8,514 bases of DNA from a virus (Duplodnaviria > Heunggongvirae > Uroviricota > Caudoviricetes), in the IMG/VR virus record IMGVR_UViG_2681813225_000025; one strand, given 5' to 3'. The translations under genes and the position numbers were made by a program. Positions 414 through 8,216 of this stretch are shown in pieces. Position 1 is the first letter of the stretch. Each line of letters begins with the position of its first letter. The notes beneath the pieces are model-generated. The model did not search any database, was not told the DNA's origin, and saw only the letters and a program-made list of their open reading frames with translations.

Positions 414-615
414 AACATTTAAGCTGATGACCACCGCGCTTTTTATTGACCATTTTGCACGCAAACTGGAAAACCTGGCGTCGTCATCTATTCTTAAAGG
501 GCAAGGCAACTAAGCCTGCATTAATGCCAACTTTTAGCGCACGGCTCTCTCCCAAGAGCCATTTCCCTGGACCGAATACAGGAATCGTACTCGGTCTTTT
601 TTTAATTGTATTTAA

Positions 616-734: not shown

Positions 735-1811
735 TCAGAGCAGTAAGTACGTTTTTTCTCTCTCATCAAGATACATTTTTGTTGTCTTCTCCGATGTGTG
801 GCCAAGTAGACGCTGAGCAAATTCTTCTCCACATGTTTCTTTGTACAATCGTCCAGCCAGGCTTCTGATCTCGTGAAAAGTTGGTGGGTTTTCACTGAAC
901 TGGATACCTGTTAATTTTCTGGCTGCGACAAATTTTTTTGTCAGGCCATCCGGGTGAATGCTGCCGTCAGGGCTGTTTTTTCTAATCCCGGCACTGATTA
1001 GATAATCTCCCCGGCTTACCAGGCGGCACTGTTCAACTACTGTACCAAGCCGTAGACCAGCGACAGGAAGGCTGAGTGACAGGGGGATAGCAATCATCAT
1101 TCCTGTCTTAATTTGCCTGATGTGGAGACGATCATCATAAATATCACTAAACCGCATATTCGTTATGTCTTCGCGACGTTGTCCTGTTACAAGGGCTAAA
1201 TCCATAGCTAATGGGAACCATGCCGGAAGTTGATCTGCTGCCTCCCTGATGCAGTTGTATGTCTTTAGTTTCAGTCGTTCTCTTGTAACTACTATTTTCG
1301 GTGCTCTTGTTGGCGTTACTGGATTTTGAGATATACGTCCTTCAACAATGGCCTCACGAAACATATCAGACAACACAGAACGCATTGATCCTGCCATTGT
1401 GTTTTTCCCTCCTTCAATCCACAAATCAAGAAACTCGGCAATATGGCGAGTGGTTATTTCTGTCAGTAAAATCTCTCCCAATTTTTCTTTTATTGTCTCC
1501 AGTTGATTTACCCGAATTTTATAAGTATTTCTGGACACTTTTCTCCTTATAAGAATCGTTTTGTAACGTTCAATCCAGTCTGCCATAGTAAATGAGTCGA
1601 ACCCTTTAAGTTTTTCAATTAAGGCAGCAGTAGAGTAGTTTTTGTATATATAGTGATTTGCTTCAATTGCCTGCGCGATTGCATCTCTTCTTGAAATTTT
1701 ACCTAGTGTAAATTCTTCTTTCGTCAGAGGGTTGCGCCAGTAATATGCTTTGTCCCTCCTTCGATATGTTAAGTTTTTAGGCAAATTGGGATCGTATTTT
1801 TTCCGCTGCAT
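735..1811 (-). CDS. int: Lambda-family tyrosine integrase (site-specific recombinase)
   Basis: 358-aa ORF, collinear in length and motifs with lambda Int (about 356 aa): N-terminal arm-binding region ([24 protein letters not shown] vs lambda PPNLYIRNNGYYCYRDPRTGKEF), [16 protein letters not shown] vs [30 protein letters not shown] vs PTFHELRSLSARLY, HLLGH box and a C-terminal Tyr (TKMYLDE). Overlaps the 3' end of xis as in lambda. Confidence 0.95.
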
Positions 1812-2058: not shown

Positions 2059-2164
2059 TGCCATACCTCTTACGATATGACCGCCAGTAAATATACAGAA
2101 TACTGGCGGGTGTGGTTGATTTTTAATAATCAGCTATGAAGTTCTAATTTGTATATAATGCAAC

Positions 2165-2353
2165 TCACGAGGACAGAAGTTTCTCGCAATTAAAATTTAT
2201 CAGCTTTACTTTCTGCTCTCTGGACACGCCTGCTTCTTTTTTCCCTGAGAGCATTTTTTCGCATTCTGATTTCGTTAATTTAGATTTTGAATATCTTGTC
2301 CAGTTAGTAGGAGTGCCACCTTCTTTTTCAATAGTGGCAGTTATTTTATACAT
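2165..2353 (-). CDS. Hypothetical small Lys-rich protein (62 aa), in the position of ydaC in Rac
   Basis: ORF MYKITATIEKEGG...CEKLLSS with a strong SD (GGAGG, 5-nt spacer) before the ATG at 2353. The longer track ORF (start 2425) would begin inside ralR without an RBS. Start overlaps the ralR stop (ATGTATAA). Confidence 0.6.
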   Translation of the reverse strand: MYKITATIEKEGGTPTNWTRYSKSKLTKSECEKMLSGKKEAGVSREQKVKLINFNCEKLLSS

Positions 2354-2540
2354 GAACACCTCCATTATTATTTCCAGTAGTTCGTTTATTCCATCTTTCG
2401 AGTGCTTCTTTTTCACTTCCACCATAGCCAGTTCGGGATTCGCATCCGTTGCATTTTGCCCGGTAATATCCTGAAATTGCTTTCACCGTAACAGATGGAC
2501 AACCACAAAACGGACATGGTTTAACATCGTCATATCTCAT
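2346..2540 (-). CDS. ralR: Lar/RalR-family restriction-alleviation protein (Cys4 zinc-binding; type I toxin-like small DNase family)
   Basis: 64-aa product MRYDDVKPCPFCGCPSVTVKAISGYYRAKCNGCESRTGYGGSEKEALERWNKRTTGNNNGGVHV with the CPFCG...CNGC motif of the Lar family; position between recT and int matches Rac. Start uncertain: in-frame ATGs also at 2552 and 2579, none with a clear SD. Confidence 0.75.
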   Translation of the reverse strand: MRYDDVKPCPFCGCPSVTVKAISGYYRAKCNGCESRTGYGGSEKEALERWNKRTTGNNNGGVHV

Positions 2541-2596
2541 AATTTTTGTCATAAAAACTGTCTCGCGTTGGCGGTGCATTACACCGCCAGGCTGAA

Positions 2597-3406
2597 TTAT
2601 TCTTCTGAATTATCGATCACACTGTATTCCCCGGTTAATACAGAGGAGTCTGCCGGATCGATTGTCAGTGGTTCCTTTTCATCCATTGATACTGCACGCT
2701 GGATTTCAATTGAGACAGGCAGGTATTTAAACAGGCGACGAATAGCCGTTTTTTTTGCCATTTCTTCCCAGTGAGTTACCCATGGCCCGTTATTACCAGC
2801 CTTACTCTGGCTGCGCACCAGCTCAATCTGTTTGCGCGTCATAACTTCAAACTGAGTACCTCCGTCTTTCAGTCTTGCGACAGCATAGACGTGGGTAACC
2901 GGGGCATCTTCGTTTTCTCCTGGGCGGTGTATTAACTTTTCATCAAGGCCAAATTCGAAATTAAATTCGTCACCTTCACGGACAACACGGGCTGACAGGC
3001 TGGCGATTTGACCTGAACGGCGAGCCAGATCAATCATGCCGCGATAGCCAATGATTAGCTGAACGTTTTTTTTACCGCTCTTTTCGTTTTTATTACCAAA
3101 AGGCAGTAAATATGCATGACCGAGGGCGCTACCTGGCTCAAGTCCGAGCTGTGAACACTGTACGATGGCACCGATAAAACTCGTCGAGTCACAGTTTCTT
3201 AGTTCCGGTACTTTACGGATTTCTGTTGTAGCAATGCGGATCATGCGTTCCGCTGTCATGTGACGTGGCAGAGCTGCTGCCAGTTGCGCTTTCATTGCCG
3301 GGCTGTTAATCACGCACAGCACATCCTTATCGTTAACTGCTGCTGGTGCACGGTTTCCCTGAGTTTTTTGCAGATCGGCTTTTGCGATAGGTGGTTGCTT
3401 AATCAT
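2597..3406 (-). CDS. recT: RecT single-strand annealing recombinase
   Basis: 269-aa product beginning [21 protein letters not shown], recognised as RecT. AGGAG lies 6 nt upstream of the ATG at 3406, and that ATG overlaps the recE stop (ATGATTAA). The 288-aa track ORF is an in-frame upstream extension lacking an RBS. Confidence 0.95.
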
Positions 3407-6059
3407 TTGCATACTCCTTAGCCCAGCGGGGCAGTGATAACGTCTTAATAGCTGGCCATTCATCGGTATTTAGGCAGTCAGCCAGGGTCCGCAGATTGCG
3501 GTGATATTCCTGCTGGCCTGCCAGTTTTGCTTCTTCGCCCATCATGAAAATCTCAACCGGATAACGTCCGCATTCAACAGTTGTGCTGGCAACCAGAAAA
3601 ACGAAAGTTGGCTGCACGCCAAACTGTGCTTCATAACCGTCACTGTAGAATGCATCCTGAACGTGATAGCGGTAGTCGTAATAAGCCGTTTTGAATCGTT
3701 GAATATCCGCTGTGGTTTTCACGTCCATGATCCAGTGAAATTCAGGAATAATTTTGTCCGGACGGCACCGACACAAAATTCCTGTTTCCGGATCTTCCCA
3801 GTAAATTGATGATTCAGCGTGTCCGGCGCTTTCAACAAGCCATTGCCCCAGCGGCAAAGCCATAACGCTTTGATACATGAGTTCAATTTTCCGGCCTTCT
3901 TCCGCAGTGATAACCGTTTTTCCTGTGCTTGCGCATTCCATCAGAAACGCTTTCTCTTCTTCTTTTCCGGCGTTTGTACGGCGGTTAAATTCAGGTGCTA
4001 CGATAAAGCGGTTACTGAATTCTTCCGGTTCAAGTACCCGGCAGTGGAAAGCGGTTCCTAAATCGAGCGTTTTTGTCTTTGTAGTGTCCACGGGAGCATT
4101 TTTACGCCACAAATACAGTGCCGGAGTATCAGCAATGTCATCGAGCTGAGACTTACTGACACCGGGACCTGCGTGGTAATTCTCATTCGAAATTCCGTAA
4201 TAAATACCTGGCTCTATGTCTTCTACGATTACGGGATCTGCGACTTCGCCAGTTTCATCACTGCAATCGCGATGCGGATCGCTGCCAGCATTCTCATTGT
4301 GCGGATGTTCAGCGCCTTCCATTTCCTCCAGACCTTTTTCCTGATATTCATTCTGATTTTCTTCATTAAAGGTTTTCTGATACGTTGCGTCGCCCATTAC
4401 CGCGCCACAGTCAGGACAGTTGCCGCCGCCAGCCTTACCGCAGGCGGTGCAAACTTTCTCCGTTTCCTGTTGTTGCACTACTGGCTCAGGCTGTTTCGTT
4501 TCTGGCTCGTTTTGTTGCGTATTTGGGTCGTTCTGTTCCGTTTCTGGCTGATTCTGGTATATAGAGTCGCGGGTCTGGATCCCCTTAACCCATTTCGGAT
4601 CATTCGGGTCGCTAATCCCTTCAACAAATTCTCCGCGAGAGGCAGCCAGTAATTTGTCTGCATCGACAGGATTTTTGGGCGGAATGTTTTTCCGGGCTTC
4701 ATGGAGTTCTGCCCGCAGTTTCTGATATTTCGCATCAACAGAATTTACCTGTGACTGAGCATCCAGCGGCTGCGTGTCCTGATGATGTTCAGTTGCATCC
4801 GGTTCCACTGTTTCAGCCGTTGCCTGTTCATCTGCCATTGCGCAAGATGGTTGCAGTTTTTCTTCATCATCCTGTTTTTCTTCTTCTTCTGTTACACGCT
4901 GCGGCATCGGGGCAGAGGAACGACCGCAGGCAATATCCACGATTTCCGGATCAGGGTTGGCATGATCAGTTTCAGTCAGTACTTTGTTCAGATATTCAGT
5001 GACGTGTGCGGGGGTAACCTCGATCCCAATTGGTGCTTCTTTTACGGACGCAACCACGATGGCGCGGGAATAATCCAGCCCGCCAGGCATGGTGATGAAT
5101 TTGTCGCGGAAAACAGAAAAGGGCGGTTTATTTTCAGCGATAATTTCCTCGACACGTTTAGCGTGTGCCGGATGAAGGTTATAAATGTCCACGTCCATTG
5201 AACGAGCCAGTACGCCAGTGGCTACGTCGCGCGCCAGTGACGTCAGATCGTGAACGAAACCTTCGCCGCGATCGGTGAGGTTCCCGCCGCCAGCATTAGC
5301 GCCGGAAGCCGTGCGCGTGATGCGTGAAACACGATTTCCTTTCATCCACTCTTTTGTCAGCAGACCACGATCGGTGTAGTCTGCGTCCAGGTATGCTTCG
5401 AAAAAAGCAGTCATCAGCCCCAGGCTTGAATTGCCTGGATTAGGGAAAACTCTGTCAGTATCACGCACCAGTTTGTGGAGATCGCGAATTTCCAGCGGGT
5501 CGAGCAGGCTGGTTTTGTGGGAAACAGCCAGGGCAGTAACAGCTGGTAGCTCTTCAGCTCGTGCAATGTGTAATGCCTGGAGTTCGTCGCGTGAAACGTG
5601 CGTCACCGGTTTTTCGCTGCCGTGTTGAGCAAGCCAGCGAATGGGCAGCTCCTGACCGGAAATCGGGAGTAGCATATTCTCCTCAATCTCCGTCATGTCT
5701 TCGCCATTAACATTGGTATTGTCAGTGCTGGCTGGTTTGTCCTGCGCAGAGGATGAGGGCGCGATAAATACCATTGTGATGCCATCTTCCCCGCCTTTTT
5801 CGTAACGGTTGCAGAATTCCGTATCAAATACGCCTTCTGGCGGGAGGTCATCAACAACGGGCAAATTGACGCGAACAGGTTTTTTGAAGTCATCTTCATC
5901 GTAGCCAGCATCATCAATCGCAACAGCACCACGGGAGATGGCAATGGATAATTTTTTCGCTTCAGCCCAGTAAAAACCGCCTTTAATACCGAGACGTTTT
6001 CTGACTTTGTCATTTTTTGCTTCGTAATACAGTGGGTAAACTTGTTTATCGGTGCTCAT
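3399..6059 (-). CDS. recE: RecE exonuclease VIII (5'-3' dsDNA exonuclease, nuclease domain at the C-terminus)
   Basis: 886-aa ORF ending ...[14 protein letters not shown], with the C-terminal nuclease region recognised as RecE. Central Cys-rich segment ([16 protein letters not shown]) and a Q/E/P/T-rich low-complexity linker. GAGG-type SD upstream of the ATG at 6059. The N-terminal about 100 aa look divergent from my recollection of K-12 RecE. Confidence 0.9.
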
Positions 6060-6166
6060 TGTTTTTTAACCTCAACTCAGATTAAAATTCGTTTGTTCAG
6101 TGAATAATCTTGCCGGATACACACTGTTCATAGCCTGTGCCATACGCAGGCTATTTCTTTCAGATT

Positions 6167-6948: not shown

Positions 6949-7503
6949 CTATTTAATACTCAGCAACTGCTCGACGGTCATATTTTTAATTGCGCTTCGG
7001 TTTACAAGAGTCCAGCCCTGTTTCTCCAGATAAAGGCGGAAAGTGTCCAGGGTACAGACGAGAGCGCCATCAGGAACGGTTTCAGTGAATTCGACGTTGC
7101 CGAATTTGTCGAAGCGAACAACCAGAGTGCGCCCATCGCCCGGAATGATTTTGTTTGTGGGAGTGGTATTATTCTGGCGCAGTTCTTTCTCCATGCGATC
7201 GAACTCAGCGATGTAGGCTTCTTTAAATGCAGCGGCTTTTTTGCCGGTGAAGCCCATCACCAGGAAAACGAAGCCGTTTTTGGTGATTTGGTACATTGGG
7301 AGTTTGCGACCGGTTGAGTCGGTATATTCGCTCGACACAAAATTGTGCTCAGTGAATTTTGCTGAACAGTCCAGATTGCGAATTTTATCCAACACTCGTT
7401 CGTGGCGTTTACCAAAGAACTCAGCGATCGCAATAGACGTAGTGACAGCGCGTCCATTTTCGATGGTTACGTCAGGGTGAGAAAGGGTATGGATAGTAGC
7501 CAT
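6949..7503 (-). CDS. Phage regulatory protein Rha family (N-terminal Rha domain, uncharacterised C-terminal domain)
   Basis: Residues from MATIHTLSHPDVTIENGRAVTTSIAIAEFFGKRHERVLDKIRNL...YTDSTGRKLPMYQITKNGFVFLVMGFTGKKAAAFKEAYIAEF match the conserved Rha-domain pattern (TTS..IAE.FGKRH..VL..IR ... PMY.MT..GF..LVMG.TG.KA..FK.AYI..F). Start set at the ATG at 7503 (GAGG 8 nt upstream) so the Rha domain is N-terminal as usual. The same frame stays open to an ATG at 7800 (283 aa, GGTGA-type SD), so a longer product cannot be excluded. Confidence 0.7.
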   Translation of the reverse strand: MATIHTLSHPDVTIENGRAVTTSIAIAEFFGKRHERVLDKIRNLDCSAKFTEHNFVSSEYTDSTGRKLPMYQITKNGFVFLVMGFTGKKAAAFKEAYIAEFDRMEKELRQNNTTPTNKIIPGDGRTLVVRFDKFGNVEFTETVPDGALVCTLDTFRLYLEKQGWTLVNRSAIKNMTVEQLLSIK

Positions 7504-7667
7504 GATGGCAGCCTCGATAGTCAGTTTAAATAACTCACCACCAAGGCTTTCCACGACCATAAGGGTGGTGAGACGTACAGGGGTGGAAATACCGGTGACT
7601 ACCGAAACCGGCCAGCCTTTCGGCTGCCCTGCACGCCCCACCATAATCTGAATGTGGCTGTGCATTA

Positions 7668-7700
7668 CGCATAAAAAAACCGCATGAGCGCGGTTATGCG
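7668..7700 (-). terminator. Candidate intrinsic terminator on the minus strand (stem AACCGC/GCGGUU, loop GCUCAU, then a U-run)
   Basis: Plus strand reads cgcataaaaaaaccgcatgagcgcggttatgcg; on the minus-strand RNA the hairpin is followed by 5 or more U. Lies between the upstream small genes and the Rha start, inside the alternative 5' extension of the Rha ORF. Confidence 0.4.
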
Positions 7701-7863
7701 CAGTAGTCATCATCGGGTTTCCACGCCCGGCACCCGCTTTATGAGGTGCAGGTGCACTATAATTCCACCCGTTCTGGTTTTCAATAGCTACATCCAACAT
7801 TTTCTCTCACCTTTCATCACTGAAGTGAACTTTGTTGATGCGGTGCCTGGTGCCTCCAGGTGA

Positions 7864-7885
7864 CGTTAACCAGTTAACAATTAAC
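7864..7885. repeat. Short tandem array with 8-bp period: GTTAACCA, GTTAACAA, TTAACGCC (GTTAAC is itself palindromic), next to a GTGCCTG/GTGCCTC tandem at 7842..7856
   Basis: Read directly from the sequence in an otherwise non-coding stretch; operator- or iteron-like appearance. A GATAAT -10-like hexamer follows at 7890..7895 on the plus strand. Confidence 0.4.
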
Positions 7886-7970
7886 GCCGGATAATCCACC
7901 CATAACACTGATGCTTTTAACTGTGCCGCGTGCGCTCAGCCGCATTCACCGCAAGCATCACAAAATTCAC

Positions 7971-8017
7971 TTTAAAAAGGGGCGGCAGGGCAGCCACGGA
8001 GTAGAACTGATGCCGCC
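7971..8017 (-). terminator. Candidate intrinsic terminator or structured RNA element on the minus strand (7-bp GC-rich stem GGCGGCA/UGCCGCC, then CCUUUUU)
   Basis: Plus strand 7981..7987 ggcggca pairs with 8011..8017 tgccgcc; an A5 run on the plus strand at 7974..7978 gives a U5 tail on the minus-strand RNA. The loop is large (23 nt), so the call is tentative. Confidence 0.3.
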
Positions 8018-8216
8018 AAAGACTACACATAGCAATGTCGTTATTTACAACCGGAGGCGCACTCCCACCATTTAAATTTGACAGACAAGACCGACTCTTT
8101 ATGGATACCGGAAATGCGCCTTCGTGTTATGCCCGGTTTTATTTCACCACCTCCGGGCTTTGGTGGCCTCGGCTATACCTCTACAGCGAGAATATTGAAT
8201 TAATCCAGTAAATGGA

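Follow-up and report, generated by a model that had tools for sequence, protein, structure and literature searches.

What does the interval at positions 2165-2579 of this viral DNA encode, and is the small cysteine-rich protein read from it one half of a type I toxin-antitoxin pair? The initial annotation had taken the interval as one gene, a RalR-like candidate toxin. That reading has to be divided: within the window (the whole stretch of 8,514 nt that was analysed) the interval holds two minus-strand genes, ralR and DUF1187/rcbA, and, on the plus strand, RalA. We are highly confident that these are the type I toxin-antitoxin module RalR/RalA of a Rac-like lambdoid prophage and, overlapping it, the DUF1187/rcbA gene. 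The features discussed below are as follows.

2154..2159, plus strand: probable -10 box (TATAAT) of ralA, read from the sequence and an alignment
2165..2353, minus strand: DUF1187/rcbA (ydaC) coding sequence, 62 aa (Pfam, NCBIfam, PGAP), overlapping the 3' end of ralR by 8 nt
2169..2347, plus strand: RalA antitoxin sRNA, 179 nt (Rfam RF02694), antisense to DUF1187/rcbA
2231..2246, plus strand: pairing element, RalA nt 63-78, UGCUUCUUUUUUCCCU, 16 nt, with an 11-nt core at 2231-2241; direct-repeat family D1
2314..2347, plus strand: RalA terminator, a 6-bp stem (UGCCAC/GUGGCA) with a 14-nt loop, then GUUAUUUU
2346..2540, minus strand: ralR coding sequence, 64 aa and stop codon (ORF, NCBIfam, Pfam); PGAP gives the same coordinates in an identical record
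2403..2418, minus strand: RalA target in the ralR mRNA, nt 123-138, AAGUGAAAAAGAAGCA; last base of the Gly41 codon and codons Ser42 to Ala46
2541..2596, minus strand: recT-ralR spacer and ralR leader, with in-frame ATGs at 2552 and 2579
2569..2589, minus strand: GC-rich hairpin between the recT stop codon and ralR, enclosing the non-conserved ATG 2579
2597..3406, minus strand: recT (ORF list and PGAP), stop codon at 2597-2599
2609..2638, minus strand: promoter-like TTAACC-18-GATAAT in the 3' end of recT, a candidate promoter of ralR's own (consensus scan)
3399..6146, minus strand: recE (ORF list and PGAP)

The prophage and its RalR protein

The DNA of the window is that of a Rac-like lambdoid prophage from E. 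coli of the Shiga-toxin type. A 651-nt segment around the feature is 100% identical to the O111:H8, O45:H2 and 2014C-3061 E. coli chromosomes and 99.8% identical to O157:H7, all of them of that type, and 1922 of the 5426 complete E. coli genomes (35%) have related sequence, mostly at 90-95% identity. As annotated by PGAP in NZ_CP027548.1, the order of the window is yebY, integrase, excisionase, DUF1187 family protein, ralR, recT, recE, ydaE, kilR and a Rha-family regulator; likewise, ralR, DUF1187, recT, recE, kilR and ydaE stand in Rac order in 2014C-3061 (PGAP). Whereas the K-12 Rac prophage is located at ttcA, this prophage adjoins yebY and the ryeA/ryeB sRNA locus (Rfam places SraC/RyeA at 463-607 and SdsR/RyeB at 504-603) and has a different int-xis module. 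Similarity to K-12 Rac starts near 2116 and is 96% across the next 520 nt. In the early-left operon recE-recT-ralR-rcbA, ralR is the last-but-one gene and follows directly downstream of recT, which is the location of RalR in a Rac-type early-left operon.

Translated from ATG 2540, the 64-aa product reads MRYDDVKPCPFCGCPS...AKCNGCES..., and its residues Cys9, Cys12, Cys30 and Cys33 form a CxxC...CxxC zinc-ribbon motif (C9-P-F-C12 and C30-N-G-C33) that is invariant in an alignment with Citrobacter-type homologues. The protein passes the cut-offs of the NCBIfam RalR equivalog NF007260 (165 bits, cut-off 113), of the Lar family model TIGR03655 (54.6 bits, cut-off 39.6) and of Pfam PF14354, Lar_restr_allev (53.1 bits, cut-off 28.6); it also matches PHROG 599 (phrog_599), a "Lar-like restriction alleviation protein". 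The identical gene in NZ_CP027548.1 is named ralR by PGAP, with the product name [quoted passage not shown]. Both the CPFCG...CNGC Lar-family motif and the RalR identity that had been read from the letters alone are thereby confirmed. RalR is a Lar-family Cys4 zinc-ribbon protein, and metal binding is predicted from its sequence. It is one residue apart from K-12 RalR (Asp5 here, Asn5 in K-12), and its gene is under purifying selection, with a dN/dS of about 0.02-0.07 and 13 of the 18 variable sites of the core at codon position 3.

Does the structure suggest a function? A single-sequence AF2 model of modest to low confidence (pLDDT 67.6) has a beta-beta-beta-alpha topology. A Foldseek comparison of this model with the PDB returned nothing below E = 0.4, the best matches being HicB N-terminal and dsRBD-like fragments, and no nuclease site is suggested by this low-confidence model without a significant fold match. 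Similarly, a sequence search of the PDB yielded no hit for DUF1187 and, for RalR, just one to CbpD that is spurious; a relative with a solved structure did not come to light. K-12 RalR is toxic when over-produced and has been reported to be a non-specific DNase (PMC4041452); carried over from these experiments, toxicity and DNase activity would be expected of the RalR of the window. Type I toxins are in general small hydrophobic membrane peptides, and RalR, a hydrophilic Cys4-containing protein, is not one. Its non-hydrophobic character is a known atypical feature of RalR and no argument against the homology.

Where does translation of ralR begin? The minus-strand ORF at 2346..2579 encodes 77 aa and contains in-frame ATGs at 2579, 2552 and 2540, among which the initial annotation had not chosen. 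We collected 89 related loci, which gave 37 distinct alleles of the 541-nt region. Seven of the 37 have lost ATG 2579, either through a change to ATA or ATT or because a frameshift or stop codon separates it from the gene; ATG 2552 is kept in every allele; and at position 2540, 36 alleles have ATG and one has TTG. The 39 nt ahead of this codon contain 16 variable columns versus 18 in the 195-nt core (Fisher P = 5e-6), or 4.5 times the core's variable-site density, and they have neither a third-position excess (5/16, P = 0.66) nor codon periodicity. Residues between 2552 and 2540 vary freely (TKI, RKI, SKI, RTI, TKT, RKV), whereas the 64-aa core is nearly invariant. Citrobacter-type RalR homologues (59-66% identical over a full-length alignment) begin exactly at the MRYD/MMYY position, where the stop codon of the upstream gene overlaps as ATGA. 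Finally, the NF007260 alignment covers residues 14-77 of the 77-aa ORF, exactly the 64-aa form. Because the extension is variable and lacks periodicity, because ATG 2579 has been lost repeatedly and because the Citrobacter-type starts match, the comparison of alleles and homologues favours ATG 2540, with the upstream extension behaving as a non-coding leader; a start at ATG 2552 would add only unconstrained residues.

Could the true product nonetheless be the 77-aa form from ATG 2579 or a 68-aa form from ATG 2552, with the GC hairpin serving as a switch of translation by uncovering or masking the upstream start? Both here and in K-12 no stop codon interrupts the frame back to 2579, ATG 2579 sits in the hairpin loop, ATG 2552 is universally kept, and a good Shine-Dalgarno sequence is absent at all three ATGs. 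We nevertheless consider a longer RalR improbable, given the losses of ATG 2579, the variable extension without third-position bias, the free variation of residues ahead of a nearly invariant core, the Citrobacter-type starts and the curated equivalog that aligns end to end from Met14. The 77-aa isoform was rejected on the comparative grounds of the ATG 2579 losses and the unconstrained extension.

The hairpin itself is well defined. GGCGGTG (2570-2576) and CACCGCC (2582-2588) are an exact inverted repeat, just as had been noticed at the alternative starts, and in minus-strand RNA the structure extends to 2569-2589 with eight Watson-Crick pairs and one U-G; the loop takes in the A and U of ATG 2579, whose G belongs to the closing pair. 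Shuffled windows contain on average 0.26 (sd 0.59) perfect 7-bp hairpins with five or more G/C, and the window itself has two overlapping registers of this one hairpin. The 71-nt leader at 2530-2600 (minus strand) folds at -22.4 kcal/mol (z = -4.2; 0/200 shuffles as good), and in the fold a weak A-U hairpin of the ralR leader pairs ATG 2552 with ATG 2540. The GC hairpin is identical in K-12 and carries no compensatory changes among the 37 alleles. An intrinsic terminator at this position was considered and rejected, there being no U-run within 12 nt on either strand; the hairpin may instead stabilise an mRNA end or mask the spurious ATG. The TTAACC and GATAAT hexamers farther upstream are likewise identical in K-12, although such matches are expected by chance 1.8 times per region; they hint, weakly, at a transcript from 2638-2609 (minus strand) that would start just upstream of the hairpin. 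Transcripts of ralR have been reported in an uninduced lysogen by Guo et al. (PMC4041452).

RalA and its pairing with ralR

Is there an antitoxin RNA beside ralR? The initial annotation had found none by eye and had supposed that one might overlap the region. RF02694 matches 2169-2347 of the plus strand, inside the interval, over model positions 1-179 (219.2 bits versus a gathering score of 170, E = 5e-53), and a comparison with K-12 ralA leaves eight of 179 positions different (171/179 identical, 95.5%). The possibility that no RalA homologue lies nearby thus falls away, and the interpretation as RalR with RalA stands because the homologue lies within the interval. RalA is convergent with ralR, and its final 2 nt at the 3' end are shared with the ralR stop codon. 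In the K-12 RefSeq record, ralA (b4714) occupies the same relative place: it lies opposite rcbA and within it, and likewise reaches 2 nt into the ralR stop codon. Although the PGAP record identical to the window annotates ralR, it does not list ralA, in contrast to K-12 RefSeq.

The initial annotation had also suggested a search for a promoter and a terminator that bracket such an RNA. A Rho-independent terminator is present at 2314-2347, and of the promoter there is a probable -10 box: the TATAAT at 2154-2159, TACAAT in K-12, precedes by 10 nt the RalA 5' end mapped in K-12 through primer extension by Guo et al. 2014 (PMC4041452), but no good -35 was found for it. The terminator corresponds to the Rfam consensus helix 146-151/166-171, whose pair 146-171 alternates between U-A and U-G among the alleles; for K-12, a RalA of 179 nt was deduced, whose 3' end consists of a GC stem of 5 bp with a 14-nt loop, followed by U4 (PMC4041452). 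A promoter and terminator scan of 1950-2750 reported neither element for ralA. It missed the terminator because the 14-nt loop exceeds the scan's loop limit of 8 nt, and it missed the promoter because there is no -35 box, so the scan is uninformative for RalA.

With respect to RNA structure, the changes U7A and U36C break pairs 5-36 and 7-34 of the 13-bp 5' helix, and the minimum free energy fold uses a shorter 5' hairpin; the 5' stem-loop is said to stabilise RalA. No covariation was found in the RF02694 structure: among 21 distinct alleles, 0 of 48 pairs are changed on both sides and the score equals that of shuffles, in a test of little power since the alleles are 97% alike. Hfq is required for K-12 RalA (PMC4041452). 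By analogy with K-12, the window allele would be expressed, would bind Hfq and would have antitoxin activity.

How might RalA act on ralR? In K-12, a 16-nt element from RalA nt 63 pairs with the ralR coding region through 11 contiguous perfect pairs (PMC4041452). Cells in which a construct expresses ralR alone are rescued, according to Guo et al. 2014 (PMC4041452), when RalA is provided in trans, and silent mutations of either 16-nt copy abolished this rescue while compensatory ones restored it (PMC4041452). In the window, the 11-nt core TGCTTCTTTTT is repeated exactly between the RalA element and the ralR target, and the element lies where Guo et al. 2014 mutated nt 63/64 (PMC4041452). The contiguous pairing consists of 11 Watson-Crick pairs and one G-U with ralR nt 127-138. 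The whole 16-nt element makes 13 Watson-Crick pairs and one G-U here versus 14 and one in K-12, with A75C (C in the window, A in K-12) costing one A-U pair. The ralR target is invariant in the 37 alleles. Longest-run statistics were used in place of whole-length duplex folding, in which the real RalA-ralR mRNA duplex was not separated from shuffled ones (z from +0.5 to -2.75); of 1000 dinucleotide shuffles, 22 reached a match of 11 nt as well, which puts the probability of such a match by chance at about 0.02, only modestly significant in silico. Two IMG/VR alleles (L050 and L059) delete RalA nt 59-70, a loss of 12 nt, and keep ralR intact. Binding of the toxin mRNA by an adjacent antisense RNA, as expected of a type I system, is indicated here by homology and by the conserved pairing element, its function being transferred from K-12.

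We propose that transcription of RalA would run towards ralR from a promoter immediately past the stop codon of rcbA and yield an Hfq-dependent RNA of 179 nt, and that nt 63-74 of this RNA would pair with ralR codons 43-46 and block RalR synthesis. The native ralR mRNA probably runs through rcbA, because ralR and rcbA overlap by 8 nt without a terminator between them, and it would then carry the full RalA complement. RalA would thus be perfectly complementary over 179 nt to the 3' part of the ralR-rcbA mRNA, and since the native mRNA would contain this complement, action in cis as an antisense RNA through a 179-bp duplex is also plausible.

DUF1187/rcbA, phylogenetic range and alternative readings

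Does the gene opposite RalA encode a protein? DUF1187 matches Pfam PF06688 at 128 bits (cut-off 20.7) and NCBIfam NF007283 at 139 bits, and its ATG at 2353 is preceded by a GGAGGT Shine-Dalgarno sequence. It has 62 aa in the window, ending seven codons earlier than the 69-aa form of K-12. Between the window and K-12 there are seven synonymous versus one non-synonymous change (dN/dS 0.03); two Citrobacter-type loci compared with each other (L009 and L010) give 17.5 versus 4.5 (dN/dS 0.05); and the window compared with Citrobacter gives a pS of 0.82 and a pN of 0.22. Four of the other five frames have ratios of 1.3-2.6, and the fifth, the antisense frame that shares its third positions with DUF1187, has 0.23. 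The third-position excess of DUF1187 is significant (P = 3e-5 to 1e-3), and the natural 12-nt deletion preserves its frame. Guo et al. concluded that ydaC makes no protein, on the grounds that an N-terminally tagged product went unseen and that start and stop mutations of ydaC left antitoxin activity unaffected (PMC4041452). These data show that the DUF1187 protein is not the antitoxin; they do not thereby establish its absence. Because its dN/dS is about 0.03-0.05, DUF1187/rcbA is, on the evidence of codon substitutions, probably a real protein under strong purifying selection, against what was claimed in 2014. At synonymous sites rcbA has not diverged significantly less than ralR (7/37.5 versus 11/37, P = 0.29), and therefore no extra constraint from RalA is detectable.

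A search of viral contigs with the DUF1187 alignment returned only near-identical E. coli alleles, and the divergent clade was reached via a Citrobacter-protein seed. Seven of eight Citrobacter-type loci carry the RalR-DUF1187 pair, with a spacer of 11-18 nt, and by sequence comparison this gene pair is a conserved unit. The RalA-ralR pairing is absent from the Citrobacter-type pairs, where the longest complementary run is 7-8 nt, the chance level. Likewise, these loci score only 29-35 bits with the RalA model (gathering score 170), and no antisense promoter-like site was found in the Citrobacter-type locus in which one was looked for. The trans pairing of RalA and ralR is thus, judging from these loci, probably restricted to the Rac lineage of E. 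coli. Support for RalA comes from experiments and not from sequence comparison, and the K-12 mutagenesis is not contradicted.

Which alternatives have to be weighed against a RalR/RalA module? RalR could primarily be a Lar protein, with anti-restriction and modification-enhancing activity, made together with RecE and RecT on derepression of the early-left operon, its toxicity a matter of over-expression; RalA would then be mainly a cis-antisense RNA of rcbA, and the trans pairing a lineage-specific extra or a coincidence. The family names and models speak of restriction alleviation (PF14354, TIGR03655, phrog_599), and ralR lies within the recET operon, not in a free-standing cassette. RalA overlaps rcbA over all of its 179 nt and ralR by only 2 nt, and rcbA is by dN/dS a real coding gene. 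The modest chance probability of the 11-nt match, the absence of the pairing from the Citrobacter-type pairs and the natural deletion of the pairing core that leaves ralR intact point the same way. However, Guo et al. 2014 saw no effect of RalR on restriction-modification, albeit in an hsdR-deficient host, and the rescue of ralR-only cells by RalA in trans, lost by silent mutation of either 16-nt copy and regained by compensatory ones, also speaks against this reading (PMC4041452). On balance we think such a Lar protein with an incidental RNA unlikely, if far from negligible. That the ORF and the RNA match are chance features without function has in its favour only the small size of the features. 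With curated model scores far above their cut-offs, purifying selection on ralR and conservation of the module in 35% of complete E. coli genomes, we give this virtually no credence, and the Rfam and NCBIfam scores together with dN/dS refute it.

Several observations stand against the module: A75C, U7A/U36C, the 22/1000 shuffles, the lack of covariation, the Citrobacter-type loci and the 12-nt deletions. A three-part overlap is a tentative way to read the locus, somewhat less likely than not: a translated and selected RcbA would be RalR's conserved partner in prophages of enterobacteria generally, RalA would be specific to E. coli Rac and act mainly in cis, and the trans pairing would be secondary or recent.

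Relation to known systems and meaning

The RalR/RalA module of the window is already known, as the orthologue of a system described in 2014 that has Rfam and NCBIfam models. Its closest counterpart is RalR/RalA of K-12 Rac (b1348/b4714; Guo et al. 2014, PMC4041452), with which it shares the recT-ralR-rcbA order, ralA antisense inside rcbA, the 11-nt pairing core, the terminator and the hairpin upstream of ralR; RalA differs in A75C within the pairing element and in the two changes that open the 5' stem. RalR also resembles the Lar family (PF14354/TIGR03655) as a small CxxC...CxxC zinc-ribbon protein of a phage early region. The lambda Ral protein is a functional analogue that alleviates type I restriction from a lambdoid early operon, and we know of no antisense RNA partner for it. 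Its identity is 24% (PMC4041452), and it is not homologous in any useful sense. Restriction alleviation by Lar of Rac goes back to King and Murray 1995, as cited in PMC4041452, and, as far as that paper's account goes, the 1995 and 2014 papers disagree on whether members of the RalR subfamily act in restriction alleviation or as DNases.

Among type I systems, TisB/IstR-1, ShoB/OhsC and ZorO/OrzO similarly have the antitoxin RNA next to, not opposite, the toxin ORF, with a short complementary stretch of 16-21 nt (PMC4041452). However, RalR is a zinc-ribbon protein and soluble, in contrast to the small hydrophobic membrane peptides TisB, ShoB and ZorO, and RalA, unlike IstR-1, OhsC and OrzO, lies antisense, over its entire length, to the next cistron downstream in the toxin operon. 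In this respect the yonT/SR6 system of SPbeta, as far as it is described in PMC5848175, is comparable: the toxin is encoded on a polycistronic prophage mRNA, and the antisense RNA extends over the 3' end of the toxin gene and into the ORF that follows. The organism is a different one and the sequences are unrelated, and for RalA a cis action is our proposal.

What does the locus add? Mildly new are the evidence that selection acts on DUF1187/rcbA as a protein and the narrow phylogenetic range in which the RalA pairing occurs, both of which bear on how the published model is read. DUF1187/rcbA raises a modest question, that of selection at the protein level versus the founding paper's conclusion that no protein is made. 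Finally, PGAP genomes name ralR and omit ralA, so that the antitoxin looks absent in about one third of E. coli genomes, yet it is present.

Position and architecture of the prophage

Two Rfam sRNA matches lie in the window directly between yebY and the prophage integrase, which gives this order of features:

1-342, yebY
463-607, minus strand, SraC/RyeA (176 bits)
504-603, plus strand, SdsR/RyeB (113 bits)
735-1811, minus strand, prophage integrase

Since the bidirectional RyeA/RyeB sRNA locus is found between these two genes, the prophage adjoins that locus, whereas K-12 Rac is located at ttcA. The stretch separating the start of the excisionase gene from the DUF1187 stop codon contains an inverted repeat (2081-2109), whose 9-bp arms, CCGCCAGTA/TACTGGCGG, match perfectly and enclose an 11-nt loop. 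Similarity to K-12 Rac starts a few bases past the repeat, at about 2116. Here the int-xis module meets the recET-ralR-rcbA module.

At the other end of the window, the immunity region (7561-8031, minus strand) holds a cluster of phage regulatory RNAs:

7561-7648, minus strand, C4 antisense RNA (79 bits)
7673-7749, minus strand, isrK (63.6 bits)
7710-7762, minus strand, c4-a1b1 target (sub-threshold match)
7839-7953, minus strand, STnc100 (sub-threshold match)
7980-8031, minus strand, DicF (60.9 bits)

Two of these RNAs, C4 and isrK, overlap a Rha-family/antirepressor-like ORF (6949-7800) in its 5' portion.

Variation among related loci

Two IMG/VR loci (L050 and L059) have a 12-nt in-frame deletion, equivalent to window positions 2227-2238, that removes nucleotides 59-70 of the antitoxin sRNA RalA, including most of its pairing core with the ralR mRNA; despite this deletion, the ralR and DUF1187 frames are both intact. 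In another related locus, L041, DUF1187 is frameshifted by a 2-nt insertion within an A-run. Citrobacter-type prophages (L009, L010 and L172-L177) retain the RalR-DUF1187 pair, but the gene upstream of it is a 96-100-aa ORF rather than recT. These same loci lack the GC hairpin that follows the recT stop codon, the RalA pairing core and any antisense promoter-like site.

The module also occurs at 88.6% identity in a record that bears the name Actinobacillus phage vB_Apl-pPE4 (PP818812.1, database match H30), and in a 2.9-kb contig (L006), binned to an uncultured Roseburia MAG, with a RalR identity of 98%. Both host labels, Actinobacillus and Roseburia, look doubtful.

Expression of ralR and coding status of DUF1187/rcbA

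Within the recT 3' end, the minus strand carries a promoter-like TTAACC-18-GATAAT site (2609-2638), both hexamers of which are the same in K-12. The ralR transcripts reported for uninduced K-12 (PMC4041452) imply that ralR has a native promoter, for which this site is a candidate. A weak A-U/G-U hairpin of 8 pairs (2540-2556, minus strand) joins two candidate ralR starts, ATG 2552 and ATG 2540, and no candidate ralR start has a good Shine-Dalgarno sequence; together, these features suggest that ralR translation initiation is intrinsically poor.

DUF1187/rcbA (2165-2353, minus strand), to which the whole of RalA is antisense, stops 7 codons sooner in the window than in K-12. The 2014 study concluded that no protein is made from ydaC, its K-12 name (PMC4041452). 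The strong Shine-Dalgarno sequence GGAGGT belongs to DUF1187/rcbA, and this signal and a dN/dS of about 0.03-0.05 argue that DUF1187/rcbA is translated.
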